Part shown: positions 6,165-25,403 of the stretch, piece after piece
Position numbering within the stretch: position 1 is the stretch's first letter
Layout: each line of letters begins with the position of its first letter
NCBI GenBank assembly: GCA_050261255.1
Contig: JBLNDC010000349.1
Location: 1-25,403 of the forward strand
Source of the DNA: Bacteroidota bacterium
Lineage (GTDB): Bacteria; Bacillota; UBA4882; UBA8346
DNA length: 25,403 nucleotides
Direction: 5' to 3'
The notes under the pieces: model-generated
Told to the model about the DNA's origin: nothing
Databases searched by the model: none
The model's input: the letters and a program-made list of their open reading frames with translations, nothing else
Position numbers and translations under genes: made by a program

Positions 6165-6659
6165 TTAGTTTAACGGGTCCTCGATCAAGCTGGCGAATTG
6201 GAACTCGTGAAAATGTCCATCGTCGACAGTGGTGATGAATTTTGCAAAATGAACATGTTTTCCATCACCCACTTCAATGGCTGGTCCTGAAACTGCGGCA
6301 ATTTCATGGAGATGTTCATCGAAAAAGTCGGTATTAACGAACACACCATGGACATGGCTATTACCAAAGGGTATTACTTCACTGCTCACTCCGGCAAAAC
6401 GGTGATTATGCCGGTCCTCACCAGCCTCGGCCAGCTTGGTGCTTCCCTGAAATTCGTGCACATGGGTCTGGGAAGGACCAACTTGAGGAGGCTTGGGATG
6501 ATCCGGTTTTTTGGGGCATTCCGGATCTTTTGGCCATTCCGGTTTTTTGGGCCATTCCGGTTTTTTCGCTGATGAATCGATTGGACTCCCGCAAGATTGG
6601 GATATTGTTCCCGGGTGGGATTCGGAACCTATTTGGATGATATTGTCCTTGGAGTTCAT
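6165..6659 (-). CDS. YmaF-family His-rich protein with a Pro/Lys repeat N-terminal extension
   Basis: Motifs THVHEFQGST, RHNHRFAGVS, SHVHG, HLHEI, KHVHF and GHFHEF. ATG 6659 has SD AAAGGAGG (the ORF-track start 6683 lacks an SD). Confidence 0.88.
   Translation of the reverse strand: MNSKDNIIQIGSESHPGTISQSCGSPIDSSAKKPEWPKKPEWPKDPECPKKPDHPKPPQVGPSQTHVHEFQGSTKLAEAGEDRHNHRFAGVSSEVIPFGNSHVHGVFVNTDFFDEHLHEIAAVSGPAIEVGDGKHVHFAKFITTVDDGHFHEFQFASLIEDPLN
6502..6573. repeat. About four imperfect 18-bp coding tandem repeats (KKPEWP/KDPECP units)
   Basis: Units TCCGGTTTTTTGGG(G/C)CAT-like at 6502, 6520, 6538 and 6556. Confidence 0.85.
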
Positions 6660-6747
6660 GCGCCATCCTCCTTTCGGAACCATTTTATGTTGAATATCGC
6701 TGAATGTAACATGCGGATTGCACTATCGGCTATTGAAACTTTAAATG

Positions 6748-10366: not shown

Positions 10367-10392
10367 TCCATTTTTCCTTAACTGTTTTTATA

Positions 10393-10511
10393 TTAAGGAA
10401 TTGCATAATTCATGATTTAAGCTTTGGCTCACAATATATTGATAGATACATCCGAGCTAGTCACTATATATTGTGGACAAAGGGTTTATTAAGGCAATTA
10501 TGTAATTCCCT
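10393..10511. repeat. ~119-bp self-complementary element, copy 2 (permease/kinase gap)
   Basis: Ends AAGGAATTGCATAATT / AATTATGTAATTCCCT are inverted repeats (14/16). Inner stem CACAATATAT/ATATATTGTG. Confidence 0.85.
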
Positions 10512-10573
10512 CATATAATTATGTTACAACATCTGACAATAAGTTCCTGCTATTTAACAAATAACTTTATTGC

Positions 10574-11437
10574 TTATTCCTTCAGGCCGGTGGTGGCTAA
10601 ACTCTGCATGAAGTAACGCTGGGCGATGAAGAACATTATCAGTAGAGGCAGCGTAAATAATACTCCCACCGTCATCTGGTAAGGGATCTGCGGCAGGGGG
10701 AGCGTAAATGAGACTCCCGGAATCTTCACATTGGAGATCATCTGCACCGCCAAGGTTTGGTTTTCATTAGCCAGGAAGATCAAAGGCTTAATATAATCCG
10801 AATAGAGCCATTGCAGAGAAAAAATACAAGTTGTCGTAATCGCCGGTCCTGCCAGCGGGAAGAAGATCTGCCAAAATGTTCTGAGCCGCCCGCAACCGTC
10901 AATCAGTGCGGCATCCTCCAATTCCTTCGGCAGGCTGGCGAAGAACTGCCGGTAGTAAAAGATAAAAATCGCCCATCCCGGAGCGGCATCCAGCCACCAG
11001 GGGAGAAAGCAGAAAGGATACGATAAAGTTAACAAACCCAGCTTGGCGAAGACGATATATTGGGGGATTAAAATTACTAGTTGCGGTAACATCATGGTTG
11101 AGAGCAACACCCCAAACAGAAAATTCTTTCCCGGAGCCTTGTAACGGGCAAAACCAAAACCCGCCAAGGCGCTGGATATGGTGACGATTACGGTAGTCGA
11201 AAGGCAGAGCGTAACCGAGTTGCGCATCGCCAGCCAAAAGTCGGTAACCTCGGTCCCCATTAACACCTGCTTGAAATGAATCCATTGGGGAGCCGGCGGG
11301 AAGATGGAGATGGGATAGGTAGCCAGTTCTTCGGGGCGTTTTAAAGCGGTGACCACCATCCAAAAGAGGGGAAATAAAAATATTAAACTCATCACAGTTA
11401 AAGTAATGATTAACGATACTTTTCTGGTATTATTCAT
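10574..11437 (-). CDS. Carbohydrate ABC transporter permease (MalG-type)
   Basis: FLFPLFWMVVTALK and the EAA loop LPKELEDAALIDGCG. Six or so TM segments. ATG overlaps the upstream stop. Confidence 0.93.
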   Translation of the reverse strand: MNNTRKVSLIITLTVMSLIFLFPLFWMVVTALKRPEELATYPISIFPPAPQWIHFKQVLMGTEVTDFWLAMRNSVTLCLSTTVIVTISSALAGFGFARYKAPGKNFLFGVLLSTMMLPQLVILIPQYIVFAKLGLLTLSYPFCFLPWWLDAAPGWAIFIFYYRQFFASLPKELEDAALIDGCGRLRTFWQIFFPLAGPAITTTCIFSLQWLYSDYIKPLIFLANENQTLAVQMISNVKIPGVSFTLPLPQIPYQMTVGVLFTLPLLIMFFIAQRYFMQSLATTGLKE

Positions 11438-12420
11438 TGCTTACCGGACCTCCCTTCCTGTTCTACCGCATAATGGACCCATGATGTGCTGGTTTTACGG
11501 ACAATCAACGCTATAGCCAAGATTATGACAAACAGGATCCACAACAGGGCGGTCCCATAGCCAAATCGCTGAAACGAGAGTATTTGTTGCAAAGCATAAC
11601 CGGGAAACACGAACATGGAATACCAAGGATTCCAGAAACTATTCGGATCATGGGCTTGAGCCATGACTGAGGCCGGGAGAAACATTTGTAAGGCATTGAT
11701 AATAGCCAGCATAATTTGGAAATAAGTGATTGGAGTAAGTAAAGGCCAGGTAATATGGAGAAAGATTTGCCCTTTGTTTGCTCCGTCAATCTCGGCGGCT
11801 TCCAATAGTTCCTCGGGAATGTTTTGCAGACCGGCTAAAAAGATGATCATCATCGTGCCGCAGCCCCAGACCGCAATCGCCACCAAACAATATAAACCGT
11901 AATTGTTAATCCAGTTTATCACCGTCCCTTTGCGGAACAGACTGATGAAGAGGTTGAGAAATCCGAAATTACCGTCTAAGATCGACTTAAAAACAAGAGC
12001 CGTGGCGCCGATCGGGATCATGGTCGGCAAATAAAAAGCCGTCCGGAAGGCTCCGCGGCCGGGGATTTTCTTATTGAGCAATATTGCTAAACCTAAGGCT
12101 ACCACTATGCTTAAAGGGATTGAGAGCAAGGTATAAATGAAAGTCTGACGCATGGTATACCAGGCGTCGGGACTTTGAAACGCCTCGCGATAGTTGGATA
12201 ACCCGATAAAAGCGGTACTGGAAAGGTCGAATCCGTTATAATTGGTAAAACTGGCAACCAAGGTGGCGACCATCGGGAAAACTTGCAAGAAAACGAAACC
12301 CAACAACCAGAGGCTGATAAAACCGTAAAAGGCGGTTGCTTCCCGTTGGATGAACCTTTGGAACCAGTGAGTTTGCTTTGGTCCAATTTCAATTGGCGCG
12401 GTTTTAATGGTTGTCATCAT
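11434..12420 (-). CDS. Carbohydrate ABC transporter permease (MalF-type)
   Basis: FLAGLQNIPEELLEAAEIDGA EAA loop and RTAFYLP. ATG 12420 has SD AAGGAG (the track start 12492 runs through a hairpin). Confidence 0.93.
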   Translation of the reverse strand: MMTTIKTAPIEIGPKQTHWFQRFIQREATAFYGFISLWLLGFVFLQVFPMVATLVASFTNYNGFDLSSTAFIGLSNYREAFQSPDAWYTMRQTFIYTLLSIPLSIVVALGLAILLNKKIPGRGAFRTAFYLPTMIPIGATALVFKSILDGNFGFLNLFISLFRKGTVINWINNYGLYCLVAIAVWGCGTMMIIFLAGLQNIPEELLEAAEIDGANKGQIFLHITWPLLTPITYFQIMLAIINALQMFLPASVMAQAHDPNSFWNPWYSMFVFPGYALQQILSFQRFGYGTALLWILFVIILAIALIVRKTSTSWVHYAVEQEGRSGKQ

Positions 12421-15726: not shown

Positions 15727-15955
15727 TCCTTTCCGAAATACATCTGTCACACGTTGAAAGTCGCCCTTTTAAAGACTCAAACTCGGAAGCTAAAGACCCA
15801 AACTCCGCCCAACAGATTATCTGATTAGTTTATCCCTTCTCAAGTGCATTTCTTTCATATTCCATTGTCTGATTTCGAAGCAACCTCATATCATGAACCG
15901 AGACCGGCAATCTCTGAAAAACCGGTTTCAATTCAATGTAATGGAGGAAGCCCAG

Positions 15956-16657
15956 ATGTCTGTGAATGAACCCCAAATTCCCTGCCCGGGAGGAACTGTG
16001 TACACAATCAGGCCGGGAGATGCCTTTTATCTTTTGGCAAGGCGTTTTAATACAACTATCGCCGCTCTCCAAGCGGCTAATCCCGGTGTAGATCCGACCA
16101 ACTTACGTCTCGGCCAGCAGATTTGCATCCCGGTTCCGAGCGTGCCGGGCCCTTGCCCCGGAGGCTTTTTCTATACTGTCCTGGCTGGAGAAACTTTTTT
16201 CAGCCTAGCCCAGCGTTACGGTATTTCCGTAGCAGCGCTGCTGGCCGCCAATCCTGGTGTCGACCCCAACCGGTTACAGGTCGGACAACGGATCTGTATT
16301 CCGGCTCCGCCCCGGCCGGAACCTTGCCCGGGAACACTCTATACTATTCAACCGGGTGATACCTTCATCGGAATCGCGCGCCGTTTCGGCTATACACTTG
16401 ACGCTCTGTTGGCGATTAACCCAGGGGTTGACCCCGATCGCCTCCGGATTGGCCAACAAATTTGCCTGCCGCCTTCCCCCGGAGGAGGTCCCTTCCCTTG
16501 CTTTGGCGGGACCATTTACCGGGTTCAAGCGGGAGAAACCTTGTATTCAATCGCCCGGCGATTCGGCTTGACCCTACAGCAATTGTTAAACGCTAATCCC
16601 GATATAACCAACCCCAATGCGATCCAAATCGGCCAGCCGGTTTGCATCCCAAGATAA
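15956..16657 (+). CDS. Four-LysM-domain protein, SafA/ExsA-like spore-associated
   Basis: Four repeats of CP-x-G-x-x-Y-T/R-I/V-x-x-G-D/E-T...NP-x-x-D/N-P-x-x-L/I-x-x-GQ-x-I/V-C-I/L-P. ATG 15956 has SD GGAGG. No signal peptide. Confidence 0.9.
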   Translation: MSVNEPQIPCPGGTVYTIRPGDAFYLLARRFNTTIAALQAANPGVDPTNLRLGQQICIPVPSVPGPCPGGFFYTVLAGETFFSLAQRYGISVAALLAANPGVDPNRLQVGQRICIPAPPRPEPCPGTLYTIQPGDTFIGIARRFGYTLDALLAINPGVDPDRLRIGQQICLPPSPGGGPFPCFGGTIYRVQAGETLYSIARRFGLTLQQLLNANPDITNPNAIQIGQPVCIPR

Positions 16658-16677
16658 ATCATTTTTCTTTACCACAC

Positions 16678-16702
16678 AACCCCCCAATGACGGGGGTTTT
16701 TT
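16678..16702 (+). terminator. Intrinsic terminator after the LysM gene
   Basis: AACCCCC-AATGAC-GGGGGTT followed by T run. Confidence 0.75.
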
Positions 16703-17126
16703 CATTTCAGCGCTGAGATGTTGCTTTAGGAAATCAAATTTACATCTTAACTCAGCTCTGTTATTAATAATAGTTAATTTGATACCCCTATTTTCTTCTC
16801 GCGCAGAGACCCCCCTCTGCTACTACTATTTTTATAGCTCTAAAATCATTTTACTGTATAAGGCGCGAAGGCACCGAGAAGTTTAGAAACATATTTCAAT
16901 CAACCTTTCTTAAGAACATAGCAAAATATATAGTAATTACCCCTGATGCACCTATCGATATATTGTTAGCCAAAGCTAAAATGAGAATAGTGCAATTTCT
17001 TAACTTAATTTTGATACTAAAAAATCACTCTAAAAACGATCGTAAATCATGTTCCATTTTAAAAAATAAAACATACATTGGATTAAGGGGAAGTCCCGCT
17101 AACCCCGGTGGAAAGGGGGTGAAACC

Positions 17127-17204
17127 ATGGCTGATTCCAAAGCCGCTTTCTTTGGTTTTCCGTGGTTCTTATTTCTATTCTTGATACCTTTATTCGGCAT
17201 TTAA
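17127..17204 (+). CDS. 25-aa hydrophobic peptide MADSKAAFFGFPWFLFLFLIPLFGI (not in ORF track)
   Basis: SD AAAGGGGGTG ahead of the ATG. Followed by a strong terminator. Resembles the 20.5-21.4 kb peptides (MAD start, FFG, P-W-x-L-F-L). Confidence 0.7.
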   Translation: MADSKAAFFGFPWFLFLFLIPLFGI

Positions 17205-17212
17205 TCACTAAT

Positions 17213-17246
17213 AAGATCTGATCTAATATCTTAGGTCAGATCTTTT
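17213..17246 (+). terminator. Intrinsic terminator after the 25-aa ORF
   Basis: AAGATCTGATCTA / TAGGTCAGATCTT 13-bp stem (one G-U) followed by T run. Confidence 0.75.
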
Positions 17247-17515
17247 CATGTCGGATAAAGTTTAACCATTCATTAGAAGTGCTCGGTGTAGCGGCGCTCC
17301 TAAGCGCAATTATTTTTTCGATAACCTAAACTTAAATTAATTATTTTTCGATTACGATTACATGCGCCTTTTGCTTATCTATCGACTTTTTCTTTCTAAA
17401 CAAGCAGCGCTTGCCTGTGATAATCGCTCATTTGAATAGTCGTGCTTTTTCCCCAGAAATCTTACAATCTGATGTAATATAATATATTATCTTTTGATCG
17501 AAAGGGGGTTAAGCG

Positions 17516-18859
17516 ATGACGCCCAAAAACTTTTGGGTGCGGAAACTCTCGCTGCCACTTCGGACTGATGAAGTTTTCGGTAAGTCCGACTCTCCACGCC
17601 GGTTAATCGTGGAGGTCATGAACAACCGAAGCTTGGATCGGATAGCAGCGTTGATTGACTCCAACCAAGGGAAAATCCATAAAGAGATCCGGATGATCCC
17701 GTCGCTGGTTGCGGATTTGCCTTTCTCGTCCCTTGAAGAACTGGCGCGTTCCAGATATGTTTATAAAATTTGGCAGGACTCTCCGGTATATACTCAGCTA
17801 GACGTGGCGGTACCCTCCTCCGGCGGTCTAATCCCATACCAGGCGGGGCTGACCGGTAAAGGTGTCGTAGTTGCGGTTTTGGATACAGGAATCGATCCTC
17901 ACGAGGACTTGACTGAGCCGACCAATCGGATTTTGGCTTGGAAAGACTTAGTGAACCAAAAGAATTCCCCATATGACGATAACGGGCATGGCACTCATGT
18001 AGCCGGGATTATCGCCGGCAATGGCCGTTACTCCAATGGAAAATACCGGGGAATTGCCCCTGAGGCTATGCTGGTCGGGGTAAAAATTTTAGATGAAGAA
18101 GGCAGCGGCAGGTTATCTGATGTTATCTCCGGTATTGAATGGTGCATTAATAGTTTGTCGGCCTTGAATATCAGGGCGATCAATCTCTCGATCGGATCCG
18201 AAGTCCAGGAATCTTATCGGGCTGATCCGTTATGTCGGATAACTTCCGTAGCTTGGGAAAAAGGGATTACCGTATGCGCCGCCGCGGGAAACAGCGGACC
18301 AAGATTTGGAACTATCAACACGCCCGGCATCAATCCGGTAATTATAACCGTAGGTAATCTTGATGATCAAAACACCCTCACCAACATCGATGATATCCTC
18401 GCACCTAGTTCCAGCAGGGGGCCGACCCCGGACAGACTGATTAAGCCGGACTTAGTAGCGCCCGGCACTAATATTACTTCGCTAAAAGTTGGAGGTGGCT
18501 ATACCACTCTGAGCGGTACTTCAATGGCGACTCCATTGGTAAGCGGCGCGGTTGCCCTAATCCTCCAAAAGTGGTCTAACCTTAAACCAGATCAGCTCAA
18601 AACTCTTTTAATGCAGAGCGCCCGGAATGTTGGCGTCGGGCCTAATCTACAGGGAGCAGGAGCTTTAGATCTAGAGGCTATTTTTAAGCATGAAATTGAG
18701 TCACCAAAACCAAAAAAAAACGAACCCGAGCCAAGTCTCGGTGGAATCTTACTTAAAACCATTCTCAAAATGGTAGTCTCTAATCTTTCCTCCGGTCAAC
18801 AGTTTAAAGGGACTGATCTCCTAAAAATGGCCTTAAATTTCATGGGAAATTTAAAATGA
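17516..18859 (+). CDS. S8 subtilase (AprX-like), paralogue 1
   Basis: Triad VLDTG / NGHGTHVAG / SGTSMATP and oxyanion AAGNSG. I9-like propeptide, no signal peptide. Confidence 0.93.
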   Translation: MTPKNFWVRKLSLPLRTDEVFGKSDSPRRLIVEVMNNRSLDRIAALIDSNQGKIHKEIRMIPSLVADLPFSSLEELARSRYVYKIWQDSPVYTQLDVAVPSSGGLIPYQAGLTGKGVVVAVLDTGIDPHEDLTEPTNRILAWKDLVNQKNSPYDDNGHGTHVAGIIAGNGRYSNGKYRGIAPEAMLVGVKILDEEGSGRLSDVISGIEWCINSLSALNIRAINLSIGSEVQESYRADPLCRITSVAWEKGITVCAAAGNSGPRFGTINTPGINPVIITVGNLDDQNTLTNIDDILAPSSSRGPTPDRLIKPDLVAPGTNITSLKVGGGYTTLSGTSMATPLVSGAVALILQKWSNLKPDQLKTLLMQSARNVGVGPNLQGAGALDLEAIFKHEIESPKPKKNEPEPSLGGILLKTILKMVVSNLSSGQQFKGTDLLKMALNFMGNLK

Positions 18860-18872
18860 AAACCAAAATGAT

Positions 18873-18900
18873 AAAACCCGAATCCTAGGTTCGGGTTTTT
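18873..18900 (+). terminator. Intrinsic (likely bidirectional) terminator
   Basis: AAAACCCGAA-TCCTAGG-TTCGGGTTTT. Confidence 0.8.
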
Positions 18901-19113
18901 AAATTATACTTATTCTTTCCTGCGCATCCGCGTCTTGGCGGAAGATTATTCTTTAGGCTTTAATCTATTATCTTATAGGTTTTCCCTTACCAAGCTTTGC
19001 AGGAGTATATGAATGGATGAATATGGCTATGGAACATTTTGAGCTGAAATAGAAACAACGATAATATCAGTGAGTATAATATTTTATTCGGATCCGAATG
19101 GAGGTGATACATT

Positions 19114-20376
19114 TTGCCTCAGGCCTTATTGCATAAACTCTGCCCGGAGTTGCGCAAAACGGAGTATAACGAGAACCCAGAACAACCTCGCCGCATAATT
19201 GTGGAAATGAATCAATCGGTTACCGGGCGTGTCACCGATTTTGTCAATCACTCTCAGGGCAAAGTCCACCGGAAAGTGAATGTTTTTCCAGGGTTGGTCG
19301 TGGAATTGCCCTTCTCCCATATTCAAGAGATGACTTGGTTCCCTTATATCAAAAAAATATGGCATGACACCCAAGTTCAAGCCTTGATGGATATCGCCGC
19401 CCCGACAGTGGGCGGATATACCGCTCAAGAATCCGGCTTTACAGGTAAAGATATGGTAGCGGCGGTGATCGATACCGGGATCTACCCCCATACCGACTTG
19501 ATCTACCCGGAAAACCGGATCATCGGTTGGTATGATTTGGTCAATGAAAGAGATAACCCCTATGACGACAATGGGCACGGTACTCACATCGCCGGGATTA
19601 TTGCCGGAAACGGTGCTATCTCTCGAGGCAGGTTTCGTGGGATGGCGCCCGAAGCGAAACTAGTAGGAGTCAAAGCCCTTGATCGCAATGGTTCGGGAAA
19701 TACGTCCGATGTGATCGCCGCTATTGAGTGGTGTATTAAAAACCGGGAGCAATATAAGATCAATGCGATTAACCTCTCTTTAGGTTCAATTGCTCAGGAC
19801 TCTTGCCGGAACGATCCCCTCTGCCGGGCGGCTACTGCTGCCTGGAAAAACGGGATTGTGGTTTGTGTCGCTGCCGGTAATGACGGACCGGAAGCAGGAA
19901 CAATCAATACTCCGGGAATCAATTCATTCGTAATTACAGTTGGCAATCTCGATGACAACGCCACCATCGAGTGGGACGACGATCAATTAAACCCATCCTC
20001 TAGTCGTGGCCCGACCATCGACAATATCAACAAACCTGATCTCTTAGCGCCGGGAACTACAATTAATTCATTGCGGGTTCCTCGCGGTTACCGCGCCTTC
20101 AGCGGTACCTCGATGGCTACCGGGGTAGTTACTGGCGCGGTCCTCCAAATACTCCAGAAAAACCCGGACTTAGCCCCGGATGAAGTCAAACGTCTCTTGG
20201 TAAACCATACCCGCTTTCTGGATCTTGACACTAACCAACAGGGAGCAGGAGTAATTAATCTCAACGGCATTTTTGAAGAAGCCAAACAAAACCGATTAGA
20301 AAACAATATATTCACCCGGGCATTACCGCTGACTATGTTCGCTTTAGCTCCTTTTGCCTTTAGTATCCTATTGTAA
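19114..20376 (+). CDS. S8 subtilase (AprX-like), paralogue 2
   Basis: Triad VIDTG / NGHGTHIAG / SGTSMAT and AAGNDG. TTG start with SD GGAGGTG. Hydrophobic C-terminal tail. Confidence 0.93.
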   Translation: MPQALLHKLCPELRKTEYNENPEQPRRIIVEMNQSVTGRVTDFVNHSQGKVHRKVNVFPGLVVELPFSHIQEMTWFPYIKKIWHDTQVQALMDIAAPTVGGYTAQESGFTGKDMVAAVIDTGIYPHTDLIYPENRIIGWYDLVNERDNPYDDNGHGTHIAGIIAGNGAISRGRFRGMAPEAKLVGVKALDRNGSGNTSDVIAAIEWCIKNREQYKINAINLSLGSIAQDSCRNDPLCRAATAAWKNGIVVCVAAGNDGPEAGTINTPGINSFVITVGNLDDNATIEWDDDQLNPSSSRGPTIDNINKPDLLAPGTTINSLRVPRGYRAFSGTSMATGVVTGAVLQILQKNPDLAPDEVKRLLVNHTRFLDLDTNQQGAGVINLNGIFEEAKQNRLENNIFTRALPLTMFALAPFAFSILL

Positions 20377-20396
20377 CTCTACCTCTTCAGTCTGTT

Positions 20397-20422
20397 AAAC
20401 CCGGCTTTTAGTCCGGGTTTTT
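20397..20422 (+). terminator. Intrinsic terminator after S8 paralogue 2
   Basis: AAACCCGG ... CCGGGTTT followed by T run. Confidence 0.75.
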
Positions 20423-20535
20423 TCTGCTTAAGTAACGACTTTGATAAAAGGTTTATAGCCTAATACCATCAAAAGTTAAAACACATAAAATGTAACAGAA
20501 AGGACGGTTAAGTCCGCATAATAAAAGGAGTGAAA

Positions 20536-20652
20536 ATGATGGCTGATAATGTAAAATCATTATTTGACGGTATTTTTGGTTGTTGTAACCCATTTTGGCT
20601 TTTCTTAATTCTAATCTTGTTAACAGCCGGTTGTTGCGGCGGCTTCCGGTAA
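20536..20652 (+). CDS. 38-aa Cys-rich hydrophobic peptide 1, MMADNVKSLFDGIFGCCNPFWLFLILILLTAGCCGGFR
   Basis: SD AAAGGAGTG. Paralogous to the next two ORFs with many synonymous differences. The start could be 20539. Confidence 0.88.
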   Translation: MMADNVKSLFDGIFGCCNPFWLFLILILLTAGCCGGFR

Positions 20653-20750
20653 AATGTCACAGTAAAACGAAACCCATTCTCTTTTACTCTTAAATATAAA
20701 TCTGGGCAGAAACGACTAGCAATGTCATTAATTTTAAGGAGTGAAAACCA

Positions 20751-20861
20751 ATGGCCGACAATTGTTCCAGGGGCTTACTTGGCGGCATCTTCGGTTGTTG
20801 CAACCCGTTTTGGCTGTTTTTAATCTTAATATTACTAACAGCCGGTTGTTGCGGTCGGTAG
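20751..20861 (+). CDS. 36-aa Cys-rich hydrophobic peptide 2, MADNCSRGLLGGIFGCCNPFWLFLILILLTAGCCGR
   Basis: SD AAGGAGTG. Identical protein core with divergent codons. Confidence 0.88.
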   Translation: MADNCSRGLLGGIFGCCNPFWLFLILILLTAGCCGR

Positions 20862-20994
20862 TTCAACCTGCTGAAGGTGCTGAAGAAATGTTTCGGTAAA
20901 CATCAATTAGCATAATATCAACACTTGAGGAATCTCATATAATATAAAGGAGGACGAACGAAGTCCTTGACTATAGTCAAAGGAGTGATTAAGT

Positions 20995-21111
20995 ATGGCG
21001 GATAACCCAATCAAATCCATGTTTGACGGTTTCTTTGGCTGCTGCAATCCGTTTTGGTTATTCCTAATTCTGATACTCTTAGTAGCCGGTTGTTGCGGTG
21101 GCGGTTTCTAA
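20995..21111 (+). CDS. 38-aa Cys-rich hydrophobic peptide 3, MADNPIKSMFDGFFGCCNPFWLFLILILLVAGCCGGGF
   Basis: SD AAAGGAGTG. Same core. Followed by a terminator. Confidence 0.88.
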   Translation: MADNPIKSMFDGFFGCCNPFWLFLILILLVAGCCGGGF

Positions 21112-21137
21112 TAGATAATAAACCCCAAGTAAGTATC

Positions 21138-21160
21138 AGCCCGGTTAAACCGGGCTTTTT
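21138..21160 (+). terminator. Intrinsic terminator after peptide 3
   Basis: AGCCCGG-TTAAA-CCGGGCT followed by T run. Confidence 0.8.
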
Positions 21161-21276
21161 ATCTTATATCTTTTAGGCTTCTTCAAAGTTCTTTCGTCAC
21201 ATTCCGTTTAGCGTATCAAAATCATATTATAAAACCAAGAAAGAACCCTTATCCTGAACTGAAGGAGGTGTAAAGA

Positions 21277-21381
21277 ATGTCTGATGCCAAATTCGACGGA
21301 ATCTTCGGCAACAATTGTTTGTGGATCATCTTGTTGATACTTCTCTTCTGTTGCTTATGCGGTGGTGGCGGATTGTTCTAA
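21277..21381 (+). CDS. 34-aa Cys-rich hydrophobic peptide 4, MSDAKFDGIFGNNCLWIILLILLFCCLCGGGGLF
   Basis: SD AAGGAGGTG. Shares FDGIFG, W-I/L-x-L-x-I-L-L, CC and a Gly-rich end with peptides 1-3. Has its own terminator. Confidence 0.85.
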   Translation: MSDAKFDGIFGNNCLWIILLILLFCCLCGGGGLF

Positions 21382-21411
21382 GCGATAGGATGAAGTTATA
21401 AATAAGGACCC

Positions 21412-21435
21412 AGCCCGGATTACCGGGCTTTTTTT
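21412..21435 (+). terminator. Intrinsic terminator after peptide 4
   Basis: AGCCCGG-ATTA-CCGGGCT followed by T run; same stem as 21138-21160. Confidence 0.8.
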
Positions 21436-21663
21436 ATTGATTGAGGGCGCAAAGTAAAACGTGTTCTCCAAGTCCGCTGCGTTTTCGTCCTTGGATTAAC
21501 CAACAAGCTGCTTTTATCCTTCGATTCCCCAGAAAACCGGGGTGAAAGATAATAGTCAAATGGAACAAAGGATAAAAAAAGCGATACAAAATGCTTTTCT
21601 CAGCGAAACAGGGGGATTATACTCCATATAATGAACTGACCGGTAAATATGGAGGTGATTCCT

Positions 21664-23076
21664 TTGGCCCAAAATAGGATTTCGGGAAAACTCTCTCCCC
21701 TACTCCAGCAGGTCGAACATTCCAAAGATCAATTATGCAAAGTGATTGTTGAACTATCAAGCGGGCGGACGGACCAGATCGACGCTTTGGTCCGGGCCAA
21801 TAACGGAAAAATTCATCACAAAATTGGAATAGTGCCCTCTCTGGTAGTGGAACTTCCCTATGATTCAATCCCGGAACTTGCTAAATCCAGGCAAGTTAAG
21901 CGGATTTGGTATGACGCCCAGGTTAAACAATTACTAAATACCGTAGTCCCAACAGTCTGCGGATTTGGGGTAAAAAAAAGCAGTTTTACAGGGAAAAAGA
22001 TAACTATCGCCGTTCTTGATACCGGAGTCTATCCGCATCACGATTTGGTTTACCCTGTTAACAGGATAATCGCCTGGGCTGACTTTATTAACTTTCAAAA
22101 AGCCCCATACGATGATAATGGTCACGGGACTCATGTGGCTGGAATAATAGCCGGAAATGGCGCCAGCTCATTCGGGAAATATTGCGGAATTGCACCCGAG
22201 GCCAACTTGGCCATAGTCAAGGTCTTGGATAAAAACGGCAATGGCTCTTTATCGGCCATCATCGAAGGGATCGATTGGTGTATTAAAAATAAAGCCGAGT
22301 ATAATATTAAAATTATTAATCTATCTTTTGGCGCGGTTGCCCAGGATTCATATAGGACCGACTTATTATGCCGGGCCACATCTATAGCTTGGAAAAACGG
22401 AATCGTTGTCTGCACCGCCGCGGGTAATGACGGTCCTAGGGCCGGAACAATCAATACTCCGGGGATTAATCCAAAAGTTATTACCGTCGGCAACTTAGAC
22501 CATCGGAGAACGGTTATTTTTGATGATGATCGAGTTCATCCTACTTCCAGCCGGGGACCGACCCGGGACAAAATAAAAAAGCCTGATTTACTTGCGCCTG
22601 GTACTAATATTATTTCGTTAAGGCCGGGGGGTGGATATCGGTCTCTGACTGGAACTTCAATGGCCGCATCAATAGTTTCGGGAGCAATTGCTTTGATTTT
22701 GGAGAAAAATCCAAAACTCCGGCCGGATCAAGTCAAACGCATGCTGCTCAAAAATGCCCGGGAAATAGGGCTAGACCCATATGAGCAGGGAGCAGGAGTT
22801 ATTAATCTTCAAAAAATTTTCGCCGGTTCTGGTCGGGCGCCCCGAACTCAAATTCTAGGGGTCGAACCATTAACGGAAAAGGCCCAATTAAGGGCTTGCT
22901 ACATTGATAATTATCTTGAATACAATAATTTGCTCAACCCTTATTTATTATTCTTGATCTTAATTTTATTAATTTCAGCTTCCCCCGGTTATTATTACAG
23001 CGCGAATCCCTATTTTCTCTTTTTGATTTTGCTCCTCTTAATCCTTACTAATGAACCGAGGCTGTTATACAAGTAG
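21664..23076 (+). CDS. S8 subtilase (AprX-like), paralogue 3, with double hydrophobic C-terminal tail
   Basis: Triad VLDTG / NGHGTHVAG / TGTSMAAS. GGAGGTG at 21651 is the SD for TTG 21664 (the track start 21649 overlaps it). Tail NPYLLFLILILL ... NPYFLFLILLLLIL. Confidence 0.92.
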   Translation: MAQNRISGKLSPLLQQVEHSKDQLCKVIVELSSGRTDQIDALVRANNGKIHHKIGIVPSLVVELPYDSIPELAKSRQVKRIWYDAQVKQLLNTVVPTVCGFGVKKSSFTGKKITIAVLDTGVYPHHDLVYPVNRIIAWADFINFQKAPYDDNGHGTHVAGIIAGNGASSFGKYCGIAPEANLAIVKVLDKNGNGSLSAIIEGIDWCIKNKAEYNIKIINLSFGAVAQDSYRTDLLCRATSIAWKNGIVVCTAAGNDGPRAGTINTPGINPKVITVGNLDHRRTVIFDDDRVHPTSSRGPTRDKIKKPDLLAPGTNIISLRPGGGYRSLTGTSMAASIVSGAIALILEKNPKLRPDQVKRMLLKNAREIGLDPYEQGAGVINLQKIFAGSGRAPRTQILGVEPLTEKAQLRACYIDNYLEYNNLLNPYLLFLILILLISASPGYYYSANPYFLFLILLLLILTNEPRLLYK

Positions 23077-23200
23077 GCATCTAGAATGAATTTAGGCCGC
23101 TGAATAGAACAGTGGCCTTTAACGCTTTAATCAATAAGATAAAAACGAAACCAGGATTTGTTGGTTTCTGGTTTGAAGATCGTTTGAGGGAGGGAATACT

Positions 23201-23329
23201 TTGGCGATCCGGGTAGATATCGAGCACGATATCCTATTAATCATTACCACTGTTTTATTTATTCTCTTTGCCACCGGCCTGGCGGTACCTTCGGAAATTC
23301 CGACCACGCCGATAATTTTACCACCATAA
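23201..23329 (+). CDS. 42-aa single-TM peptide MAIRVDIEHDILLIITTVLFILFATGLAVPSEIPTTPIILPP (not in ORF track)
   Basis: SD GGGAGGG ahead of TTG. One clear TM segment. The stop abuts the SD (AAGGAG) of the next gene. Confidence 0.7.
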   Translation: MAIRVDIEHDILLIITTVLFILFATGLAVPSEIPTTPIILPP

Positions 23330-23343
23330 AAGGAGAGATACCC

Positions 23344-23685
23344 GTGTTTTCTACGGAGGATTTGGAGAAGATCAAAGAACAAATCTACCAGTATAAAGTA
23401 GGAGCAACTAGAAACAATATCAGAAATGAAAAAGAAAAACCTGGAGATAATAAAAATAACACCAAGTGCGGACCTAGCCTAAATCCACCGGAGATTTTAG
23501 TCATCGCCGGGTTATTAAGCGGCGCCTTGGAAGTAAGCTCAGTCTCGTTAAGTAGAGATCAAATAGTCCAGGTGTCGCTTGAAGGTTCCCTCCGGCGCCA
23601 AACTCAGTTGGAGCAGGTTATGGAACAAGTCGGTAAATGCACCTTTGAAGAGGTAATGCGGGCAATGCTAAAGGGCATGAATTAA
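23344..23685 (+). CDS. Conserved hypothetical protein, probably sporulation-associated
   Basis: GTG with SD AAAGGAG. The C-terminal half PPEILVIAGLLSGALEV...LEGSLRRQTQLEQVM...FEEVMRAM resembles small clostridial hypothetical proteins (recall). The spore link is inferred from context. Confidence 0.75.
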   Translation: MFSTEDLEKIKEQIYQYKVGATRNNIRNEKEKPGDNKNNTKCGPSLNPPEILVIAGLLSGALEVSSVSLSRDQIVQVSLEGSLRRQTQLEQVMEQVGKCTFEEVMRAMLKGMN

Positions 23686-23764: not shown

Positions 23765-24223
23765 TTGGCGAAGAAGCAAAAACTAAACACAACCCAACAA
23801 AAATATCAAAAAATAATACAAGAGACTAATCCTAAACCAAATATTCGGCAAAACGCTTTGATGGCCTTTGTCAGCGGCGGCTTAGTATGCGTCTTAGGCC
23901 AATGTCTCATTGACTTTTATGCTTGGATTATGAAACTCCCACCGGAAAAAGCCAGCAATCCGGCAGTGGTTACCATGATCCTAATCGGAGCGCTTTTAAC
24001 CGGATTCGGCCTCTTTGATAAATTGGCCCATTATGCCGGCGCCGGTTTGGCAGTCCCGGTGACCGGATTTGCCAACTCGATTGTCTCCGCGGCTCTGGAA
24101 TTTAAACGGGAAGGATACATTATGGGGATCGGCAGTAAAATGTTCCTGCTGGCCGGTTCGGTGATTACCTATGGGGTGGTGACCGCGTTTTTTGTCGGGC
24201 TAATTAGGGCAATCTTTAAATAA
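23765..24223 (+). CDS. spoVAC: Stage V sporulation protein AC
   Basis: Motifs AFVSGGLVCVLGQ, FDKLAHYAGAGLAVPVTGFANSIVSAALEFKREG and GIGSKMFLLAGSVITYG. Confidence 0.95.
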   Translation: MAKKQKLNTTQQKYQKIIQETNPKPNIRQNALMAFVSGGLVCVLGQCLIDFYAWIMKLPPEKASNPAVVTMILIGALLTGFGLFDKLAHYAGAGLAVPVTGFANSIVSAALEFKREGYIMGIGSKMFLLAGSVITYGVVTAFFVGLIRAIFK

Positions 24224-24263
24224 ATCAATAAAATTATTAACCAGGAACTGCAAGGAGTAACAA

Positions 24264-25277
24264 TTGACCAAAAAACTTGGCAAACAATCTTTTTATTTCG
24301 AAACCCCCCCGGTAATTATCAGTACCGGAACCGTAGTCGGACCCTTTGAAGCAAATAGCCCTTTTAAGGATGATTTTGATTTTATCTATAACGATACCCT
24401 AGCCGGACAAGAGAGCTTTGAAAAAGCGGAACGGGCTCTGTTACTCAATGCCTGTTATACCGCTTTAAATAAAATAAATACTCCTCCGGAAAATATCGAA
24501 TACTTTTTCGCTGGGGATTTGTTAAACCAAATCATCTCAGCCGGTTTTACCGCTTTAAAATTGAAGATCCCGTTTTTTGGAATCTATGGGGCCTGTTCGA
24601 CTGCTGCCGAAGGGTTGATCCTTGCTTCGGTAATGATTGACGGCGGTTTTGGTAATCTAGCGATGGCTGCCACCTCCAGTCATAACAGCTCAGCCGAAAG
24701 GCAGTACCGTTATCCGACTGAATATGGCAATCAGCGGAAGCCTTTTTCCCAATGGACAGTAACCGGCGCCGGAGCTGCCGTAATCTCAGTTTCAGGTTCC
24801 GGGCCGGTGATCACTCACGCAACAGTCGGGAAGATCAACGATCTAGCTTGCAAGGATCCCTTAAATATGGGAGCAGCCATGGCCCCAGCAGCGGCTGATA
24901 CCATTATCCAACACTTCGCCGATACCGGCAGGAGTCCTAAGGATTATGACCTAATTCTTACCGGCGACTTAGGCAAGGTTGGATGGGATTTAGCTATCAA
25001 ATGGACAGCGGAAAGCGGCGGCTTCGACCTTTCCCGGAATTACCAAGATTGCGGAGTATTAATTTACGAGCAAGCTGACGAAAAGGTTCACGCCGGTGGT
25101 AGCGGTTGCGCTTGCTCGGCGGTTGTAACCTATGGAAATATTTATCGCCGTTTAAAGCAAGGCGAGTTGAAGAGGGTATTGTTGGTTGCAACAGGCGCGC
25201 TGCACAGCCCGACCTCATTCCAACAAGGTGAAAATATACCTTGTATCGCTCATGCAGTTTGTATTGAAGCGAGGTAG
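24264..25277 (+). CDS. spoVAD: Stage V sporulation protein AD
   Basis: Motifs GDLLNQ, GIYGACST, SAERQYRYPTEYG, WTVTGAGA, DYDLILTGDLG, GGSGCACS and TGALHSPTS. Confidence 0.96.
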   Translation: MTKKLGKQSFYFETPPVIISTGTVVGPFEANSPFKDDFDFIYNDTLAGQESFEKAERALLLNACYTALNKINTPPENIEYFFAGDLLNQIISAGFTALKLKIPFFGIYGACSTAAEGLILASVMIDGGFGNLAMAATSSHNSSAERQYRYPTEYGNQRKPFSQWTVTGAGAAVISVSGSGPVITHATVGKINDLACKDPLNMGAAMAPAAADTIIQHFADTGRSPKDYDLILTGDLGKVGWDLAIKWTAESGGFDLSRNYQDCGVLIYEQADEKVHAGGSGCACSAVVTYGNIYRRLKQGELKRVLLVATGALHSPTSFQQGENIPCIAHAVCIEAR

Positions 25278-25283
25278 CGAAAA

Positions 25284-25403
25284 ATGGACCCAATAATGTA
25301 TTTGAAAGCTTTTTTAGTAGGTGGACTCTTCTGTTTAATTGGACAAGTTATTTATGACACCACCAAATTTACCATGGGGCATATCCTGACCGGAATGGTA
25401 ATC
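25284..25403 (+). CDS. spoVAE: Stage V sporulation protein AE (SpoVAEb type), 5' part only
   Basis: MDPIMYLKAFLVGGLFCLIGQVIYDTTKFTMGHILTGMVI, directly after spoVAD. Runs off the window. The start could be 25296. Confidence 0.9.
   Translation, partial: MDPIMYLKAFLVGGLFCLIGQVIYDTTKFTMGHILTGMVI

Follow-up and report, generated by a model that had tools for sequence, protein, structure and literature searches.

The stretch analyzed here, referred to as the window, comprises 25,403 nucleotides (nt) of an uncultured spore-forming soil bacterium (contig JBLNDC010000349.1 of assembly GCA_050261255.1). The segment from 17.1 to 23.7 kb contains, entirely on the + strand, three genes for AprX-type subtilases of the S8 family (S8-1, S8-2, and S8-3) and, between S8-2 and S8-3, four tandem tiny genes for hydrophobic micro-proteins. 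The pairing of the micro-proteins with the proteases is real, conserved, and dedicated, and goes beyond chance: it spans at least nine genera in two families despite differing gene orders. A literature search found no paper describing a pairing of AprX-type proteases with micro-proteins. We favor, with evenly balanced confidence, an interpretation of the cluster as sporulation-associated, encoding AprX-type proteases tethered to a membrane together with their micro-protein partners, and as specific to one lineage of a spore-forming Bacillota class. This class has few cultured members, and Hydrogenispora is the nearest named relative of the host judged on protein matches.

The micro-protein family and its linkage to S8 genes

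Peptides 1, 2, 3, and 4 (37, 36, 38, and 34 amino acids, aa) are encoded on the + strand at 20539..20652, 20751..20861, 20995..21111, and 21277..21381, respectively, each with a strong Shine-Dalgarno (SD) sequence ahead of it. Peptide 1 is built from an MADN head, an FDGIFG motif, a CC pair, an NP-capped Leu/Ile helix, and a CCGG end. The core of peptide 2 is identical in type, and the core FGCCNPFWLFLILILL-x-AGCC is common to peptides 1-3; peptide 4 represents a second subtype with FDGIFGNNC, a helix, and a CC..CGGGG end. The build of the family as a whole, in approximately 35 residues, is an MAD...FDGxFG head, an Asn-Pro-capped Leu/Ile/Phe helix, and usually a Cys/Gly-rich end, which suggests single-pass membrane micro-proteins. 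The preliminary description of this locus had proposed that the peptides form a disulfide-linked scaffold, a proposal weakened by linked family members that are free of cysteine (in L040, at L041:8572, and at L038:9615). Because several S8-linked members contain no cysteine, such a scaffold cannot be the common function of the family.

The small open reading frames (ORFs) fall under the usual gene-calling size, and a protein database search with a 40-aa form of the peptide returned only one match, so that they might be taken for chance reading frames among which only the protease paralogues are real. The scarcity of database matches is explained by the fact that such short ORFs are rarely called as genes. 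Codon differences among three copies of the 22-codon core are 10-11 synonymous versus 0-2 non-synonymous, an excess indicating that the genes are maintained by selection on the protein. Matches to the peptide profile as strong as E 1e-20 occur across many genomes with conserved SD sequences and promoters, and a metatranscriptome contig covers one of the ORFs. This conservation refutes the chance explanation, to which we assign practically no weight: the peptides are real genes of an unannotated small-protein family that gene callers have missed. Pfam and NCBIfam searches with the peptides and with the protease tails returned nothing meaningful.

Linkage was examined in 58 species genomes of the class and was defined as the presence of an S8 paralogue no more than 5 kb away on the same contig. 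The counts come from two profile-search lists compared by hand and are approximate, and related genomes are not independent samples. A first profile, built from the four peptides of the window, recovered tandem copies in relatives, with all strong matches beside S8 paralogues, and a narrow pattern search of the genome contigs based on the peptide alignment returned two loci only. A broader profile built from 41 peptides matched 28 of the 58 class genomes, with matches in 25 of the 30 genomes of the window's own family and in the one genome that represents a second family; the S8 profile matched 51 of the 58. Peptide matches numbered 109, two of which are S8-3 tails, and approximately 77 of the remaining 107 free-standing matches were linked, including all of the best 45. 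Homologues within the class are thus not mostly unlinked, and the pairing envisaged in the preliminary description held across genomes.

Within the window's family, all 24 genomes with at least two S8 copies carry peptides. The six genomes with one S8 copy, three of which are 98-99% complete, have either no peptides or weak unlinked matches only. Among 401 Bacillota genomes sampled across the phylum, no convincing peptide match was found outside the class, and three weak look-alikes were unlinked. Solo copies of the peptides are dispersed in genomes of the class, and subtype-2-like copies also occur unlinked to S8. One solo copy lies in the window genome (G000:C208:2940-3035, - strand), near sbcCD-like genes and away from any S8 gene; it consists of MADAQFDGIFGG followed by a Trp-rich helix, and its orthologue in sister species G001 is on contig C62.

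Protease zymogens, membrane-type tails, and the shared helix

S8-1 (17516..18859, +, 447 aa; PF00082 E 4e-57), S8-2 (19114..20376, +, 420 aa; PF00082 E 9e-52), and S8-3 (21649..23076, +; PF00082 E 4e-53) are AprX-type pro-subtilases with pairwise identities of 52-56%. The probable start of S8-3 is TTG at 21664, since the database gene call encodes a protein of 470 aa. The catalytic residues D123, H161, and S336 and the oxyanion residue N259 (S8-1 numbering) are invariant across all three proteins, and the N-termini of all S8 paralogues and orthologues read are polar, without a hydrophobic stretch. The intact triads, missing signal peptides, and unrelated tails that had been described for these proteins are all confirmed. 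Close homologues are labeled "serine protease AprX" by JGI, and by NCBI in the case of Hydrogenispora ethanolica (54% identity); these are names given by the sources, after the Bacillus subtilis protein.

A Pfam scan of the S8 proteins detected the S8 domain only and no I9 domain, and the NCBIfam mycosin, Csp, and PatA-type models all scored far under their cut-offs for the window proteases. In an AlphaFold2 model of S8-3 (mean predicted local distance difference test score, pLDDT, of 77), residues 24-89 form a beta-alpha-beta-beta-alpha-beta domain with a pLDDT of approximately 90, followed by a disordered junction at 92-102, the catalytic domain to approximately residue 388, a disordered linker at 389-423, and C-terminal helices at 426-446 and 449-462. 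The top Foldseek matches of the model, over 390-405 columns, are ProN-Tk-SP (3afg) and pro-subtilisin E (3whi), which are unprocessed or propeptide-bound subtilases. Together, the modeled N-terminal domain and the matches to pro-form structures indicate that the window proteases are zymogens with an I9-like prodomain, predicted to be produced without a secretion signal.

The clusters of other genera include free-standing genes (92-124 aa; L033:5748-6041, L036:12413-12691, L038:9123-9428, L039:8928-9212, L040:8378-8752, and L041:7653-7943) whose similarity to the S8 profile is confined to the prodomain. Their products are possibly trans-acting chaperones or inhibitors of the proteases. In L038, an S8-2-type gene (10389-11655) is split into two overlapping frames, reflecting either a frameshift or an assembly error.

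The tails of the three proteases are mutually unrelated, and a tree of 44 paralogues indicates that tail classes are kept within S8 clades. An amphipathic two-helix C-terminal tail characterizes the S8-1 clade, and a hydrophobic end resembling a tail anchor, preceded by Asn-Pro in several genera, characterizes the S8-2 clade; both are kept among orthologues. S8-3 is a duplicate restricted to the window's genus, and its tail consists of two Asn-Pro-Tyr-capped Leu/Ile/Phe helices. A further divergent S8 clade with an amphipathic tail is found in other genera. Each protease would then carry a class-specific tail of a membrane type, as judged from sequence.

The two helices of the S8-3 tail (22936..23046, +) are of the NPY-(L/F)LFLIL type and resemble the peptide core without its flanking Cys pairs. 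An earlier observation that one protease tail copies the peptide core is borne out by the orthologous tails, which match the peptide profile with per-genome E-values of 1.1e-6 (G005) and 4.3e-5 (G003), the match taking in the Asn-Pro cap and the LFLIL(I/V)LL run; the window's own tail helices reach only E 0.3-1.2. We read the tail as a peptide-like module that appears to have been fused to the S8-3 protease, and such a fusion argues that the peptides and the proteases sit together.

The fusion bears on a different explanation, according to which the peptides are independent tiny sporulation membrane proteins, functionally akin to YjcZ, that lie near the proteases only through a common late mother-cell regulon or gene island and do not interact with them directly. 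The separate transcription units with their own promoters and terminators would fit this explanation, as would the unlinked copies, including the C208 copy of the window genome. It is further favored by "FGG-helix-CC" micro-proteins outside the class, which have no S8 gene within approximately 1.5 kb on either side, and by yjcZ itself, a sigma-K gene of the same architecture. It does not account well for the occurrence of peptides in every multi-S8 genome of the family together with their absence, or weak and unlinked presence, in one-copy genomes, for a linkage that outlasts extensive rearrangement across genera, or for the peptide-like helix fused to S8-3. We consider independence of the peptides from the proteases unlikely.

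The likeness to YjcZ proteins (TIGR01732, tiny_TM_bacill) consists of a Gly/Cys-rich head, one Leu/Ile/Val helix, a short Cys/Gly end, and multiple copies per genome; the head MAD..FDGxFG and the Asn-Pro helix cap set the window peptides apart. Membership was rejected: TIGR01732, which recovers true members elsewhere in the phylum, matched neither the peptides (E up to 1) nor the whole genome (E up to 10), and an hhalign comparison of the peptides with a YjcZ-type profile gave a probability of 2% over 4 aligned columns. The lack of a TIGR01732 match and the low profile-profile probability lead us to treat the peptides as a separate family of similar architecture. None of the YjcZ genes examined had an S8 gene within approximately 1.5 kb.

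Promoters, transcripts, and genomic context

In a set of 42 peptide genes taken from 15 genomes, a CATAnnnT(A/G) motif (consensus tTCATATAATa) is present in 30, at 43-63 nt 5' of the start codon, whereas in the control the same interval contains the motif for 9.7% of 978 genes of the window genome. The putative -10 box is CATAAAAT for peptide 1 (20484..20491), CATATAAT for peptide 3 (20936..20943), and CATATTAT for peptide 4 (21223..21230), all on the + strand; peptide 2 has no CATA box of its own that we could find. A further CATATAAT box 5' of S8-3 (21625..21632, +) is kept in three of four sister species; it has a single substitution in G005 and is absent in G001. PMC3789822 describes CATATTAT and CATATAAT as canonical -10 sequences for sigma factors E and K, which act in the mother cell.

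In 28 aligned promoters, an upstream box (consensus acATTtGCcTA.T) is fixed 23 nt 5' of the CATA box, at approximately 20453-20466 in the window, and may be a regulator site. Its core GCCTA would be the reverse of the GerE-type TRGGY core. A genome-wide regular-expression scan for the upstream box plus CATA was discarded, as it found no real sites and missed the window's own. A weight-matrix scan of the genome recovered the three peptide promoters and one further good site on contig C295, and defined no wider regulon. Apart from the peptide promoters, the C295 site (G000, - strand, reverse-strand offset 695) scored best in the genome; it lies 5' of a gene for a Cys-rich LysM protein, possibly a co-regulated spore-envelope protein. 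Subtype-1 peptide genes also have a 4-6 bp hairpin at a fixed place, after the -10 box and before the ribosome-binding site (window 20492-20535 and 20944-20990, and the leaders of L030, L031, L032, L034, L041, and L046). Its stem varies by genus (GGAC/GUCC versus AGCC/GGCU), and it may be a 5'-terminal mRNA stabilizer.

The proteases and peptides had been described as mostly separately terminated units, and this is true of S8-1, S8-2, and peptides 3 and 4. The hairpin 3' of S8-1 (18873..18899), which is GC-rich and flanked on either side by runs of T and A, is likely a bidirectional terminator, and intrinsic terminators on the + strand follow S8-2 (20397..20420), peptide 3 (21138..21156), and peptide 4 (21412..21429). 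The terminator scan of the window found none 3' of peptide 1, peptide 2, or S8-3, for which the description does not apply. In sister species G003, S8-1 and S8-2 abut or overlap (L032:11950-11975), and in the window they are 254 nt apart with a terminator between them; operon structure therefore varies within the genus.

A soil metatranscriptome contig of 154 nt, 100% identical to the window, corresponds to 21253-21406 only, i.e., to peptide 4 from its 5' leader through its terminator. A contig of a relative from a mixed-culture metatranscriptome contains peptides and S8-3 at approximately 10 times the depth of the S8-1 pieces.

The strong, separately terminated units suggested by this layout, late in development, would also be compatible with peptides that damage membranes in the manner of holins or type I toxins and so aid mother-cell lysis and the release of intracellular protease. 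In favor of this are the strong hydrophobicity and single membrane pass of the peptides and the appearance of B. subtilis AprX in the medium, presumably through cell lysis (PMC8767453). No antisense RNA or antitoxin feature was noticed in the course of the analysis, which included no search aimed at these, and tandem arrays with strong SD sequences are untypical of type I toxins. A lytic role would leave the fused helices and the class-specific protease tails unexplained, and we judge it very improbable.

SpoVAD is encoded in 57 of the 58 class genomes, on which basis we regard the members of the class as spore formers; for the same reason, its presence was dropped as a discriminator, being uninformative. 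In the window, spoVAC, spoVAD, and the start of spoVAE (23765..25403, +; PF03862, PF07451) lie downstream of the cluster, with a forespore-type (sigma-G-like) promoter, read by eye, upstream of spoVAC. The proximity to spoVA noted in the preliminary description is correct for this locus and does not extend across the class, as an S8 cluster beside spoVA was seen only in the window's genus, plus one S8 copy in the one genome that represents the second family. Neighbors in other genera include a protein with LysM and SleB/CwlJ-type Hydrolase_2 domains, a small NlpC/P60 protein, a CotJC-like manganese catalase, and a large TPR membrane protein. The LysM (x3 or x4) and Hydrolase_2 proteins (L036:18501-19616, L039:2169-3302, and L042:835-1851) lie 1-8 kb from S8 clusters in three genera, and that of L039 has an apparent signal peptide (one N-terminus read).

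In published work, aprX is listed under sigma-K among 147 core sporulation genes (PMC3416734), AprX has been detected in B. subtilis spore extracts (PMC13553755, PMC12029333), and yjcZ, which encodes a tiny membrane protein, belongs to the sigma-K regulon (PMC517825). A mother-cell, sporulation reading of the cluster is moderately supported. The preliminary description had gone further and proposed a dedicated module for maturation of the spore coat or outer membrane. The pairing that it implied is supported, and its spore context is plausible in view of the mother-cell-type boxes, the spore-gene neighbors, and the AprX literature.

The gene order of that description, in which six peptides surrounded the three proteases, stands for the three S8 genes and the four tandem peptides; its first and last peptides fall outside the family. 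The first, a 25-aa hydrophobic ORF (17127..17204, +), is a doubtful, lineage-specific, Cys-free look-alike (profile E 5.3) with a strong SD sequence and a CATACATT box at 17072-17079. Neither an orthologue nor conserved DNA was found at the orthologous place in sister species G001-G003 (n=3). It is contained in an AT-rich stretch (16660-17415, GC 0.38) 5' of S8-1 that sister species lack; this stretch may have been inserted or may be what is left of a decayed sequence. The last, a 42-aa single-pass membrane protein (23201..23329, +), belongs to a separate conserved family with homologues in L031, L032, L034, L036, L041, and L046, each of which was found by tblastn directly 5' of a homologue of the gene that follows it in the window. 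This gene encodes a 113-aa protein, p113 (23344..23685, +), of unassigned function, a recurrent neighbor of the S8 cluster in at least three genera. No described Pfam or NCBIfam family matched either the 42-aa or the 113-aa protein, and matches to the latter in the Atlas were to unnamed Bacillota clusters only.

Upstream of the AT-rich stretch, a gene at 15893..16657 (+) encodes a four-LysM protein without a catalytic domain (Pfam LysM x4, E 9e-64). The rest of the window contains a sugar ATP-binding cassette (ABC) system, a two-component system, an HgdC-type trio, and a YmaF-family protein (6165-6683, -). A table of the Clostridioides difficile sigma-K regulon includes a YmaF-like gene. A tiny FGG-helix-CC peptide in an unrelated genome (L057) adjoins a His-rich protein similar in appearance to the YmaF-family protein of the window. 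Between two S8 paralogues in L036 (4223-6713) there is a type 2A encapsulin shell gene (SrpI-like) with a cysteine desulfurase gene.

Related systems and a proposed function

The window proteases share with B. subtilis AprX an S8 domain, a length of approximately 420-475 aa, an N-terminal pro-region, and the lack of a signal peptide. Unlike AprX, they occur as three to five paralogues per genome with class-specific membrane-type tails and clustered micro-protein genes; no micro-protein pairing for AprX emerged from the literature search. The clostridial Csp proteases (CspA/CspB/CspC, acting on pro-SleC), which are mother-cell products that the spore stores, are similar in comprising several S8 paralogues with retained prodomains and no signal peptide, and the cluster of other genera is likewise found near a cortex-lytic-type hydrolase. 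Membership in the Csp family was excluded by scores of 84-101 bits against a cut-off of 1250 for NF040809 and 59-83 against 675 for NF040808, from S8-core fragments only. Unlike Csp, the window proteases lack the Csp-specific inserted domain and are 420-475 aa long. Unlike SleC, the neighboring hydrolase has a LysM-Hydrolase_2 architecture, and the LysM protein of the window has no hydrolase domain. We know of no Csp locus that carries such peptides. By analogy, the window proteases could act comparably to Csp, as stored subtilase zymogens without a signal.

CmpA with ClpXP is one pair of a small sporulation protein and a protease. SpoVM, a micro-protein of the mother cell, binds or modulates the protease FtsH at the forespore membrane (PMC10730256), and partnering of a protease by a micro-protein is what we propose here. 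SpoVM is an amphipathic surface helix and not transmembrane, unlike the window peptides. The SpoVM and CmpA systems also differ in that their proteases are ATP-dependent and are not subtilases, and in having no gene linkage and no shared segment.

An S8 gene beside small genes for Cys-containing peptides is also the arrangement of the LanP-type leader peptidases, and the cluster might accordingly be a bacteriocin-like locus of ribosomally synthesized and post-translationally modified peptides (RiPPs). The peptides would then be precursors with the head as a leader removed by LanP-like S8 proteases, and modification in some genera would fall to an S-adenosylmethionine (SAM) methyltransferase, which is encoded inside the cluster in three genomes of two genera. 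The tandem, diversified, Cys-rich peptide genes beside subtilases, the FG-G/C ending of the conserved head, and a weak NCBIfam similarity to PatA/PatG-type proteases, all far under cut-off, are consistent with this idea. It is opposed by the lack of a conserved modification enzyme, exporter, or immunity gene in the window or among recurrent neighbors; no LanB/C/M or transporter gene accompanies the cluster, unlike LanP clusters, and the proteases have no signal peptide and are not predicted to be secreted. The supposed core is a membrane-length Leu/Ile/Phe helix, i.e., a membrane-anchor-like segment that also serves as a protease tail, unlike the Ser/Thr cores of lanthipeptides, and the promoters look sporulation-type. 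We regard a RiPP locus as quite improbable.

In the membrane-tethered protease set that we favor, the proteases would be made in the cytoplasm as zymogens and would associate with a membrane through their class-specific tails: an amphipathic helix pair in S8-1, a hydrophobic tail anchor in S8-2, and two Asn-Pro-capped helices in S8-3. The peptide genes, as small units with a strong ribosome-binding site, to which most add a promoter of the mother-cell type, a terminator, and a short hairpin at the 5' end, would supply peptides in quantity in the sporulating mother cell. The peptides would enter the membrane in which the proteases reside, in all likelihood the outer membrane of the forespore. 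By means of the conserved cytoplasmic head and of the helix that they have in common with the protease anchors, they may there tether, cluster, or gate the proteases, or be clipped by them, during maturation of the spore envelope or preparation for germination. We infer the timing, the compartment, residence in the same membrane, and any physical or enzymatic interaction.

Several observations weigh against this interpretation. The sigma assignment is based on the -10 motif; no consistent -35 element was found, and neither the ATA rule for sigma-E nor the AC rule for sigma-K is followed consistently by the spacings. We therefore call the boxes mother-cell type, a term that covers both E and K. 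S8-1 and S8-2 have no CATA box and are preceded instead by a conserved GAAA(C/T)-N16-17-TATAAT. Approximately 30 of the 107 peptide copies are not beside an S8 gene. The likeness between the peptides and the S8-3 tail helix could be a convergence of short hydrophobic segments, given the E-values of the window tail. RNA libraries can contain DNA, and the metatranscriptome contigs are strandless. According to a review, B. subtilis AprX is intracellular, dispensable for sporulation, and under LexA/SigA control (PMC8767453).

A more specific and more tentative proposal, which we think has a small chance of being correct, is that the micro-proteins gate the subtilases. The helix would dock to the related protease anchors, and the head, acting as pseudo-substrate or substrate, would sit in the active-site cleft. 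Proteolysis at the forespore surface would thereby be restrained, to be released at a defined stage of spore maturation or germination. By eye, the peptide head (e.g., S-L-F-D-G-I-F) resembles the end of the protease prodomain (e.g., A-L-M-D-I-A-A) in the form x-L-hydrophobic-D/N followed by hydrophobic residues, a likeness that would fit a substrate or pseudo-substrate role. If true, gating would represent a new kind of subtilase system, controlled by small proteins.

AprX-type proteases are conserved in endospore formers, and the cluster offers a handle on their role. The distinct membrane tails of the paralogues and the dedicated set of micro-proteins suggest that the enzymes act at a membrane, and supply candidate partners or substrates. 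The locus also adds an unannotated small-protein family that is clearly under selection and has a conserved promoter. Control or positioning of subtilases by transmembrane micro-proteins would, if the interaction is real, be a rarity, and would provide a testable model for the placement of signal-less proteases in the spore envelope.

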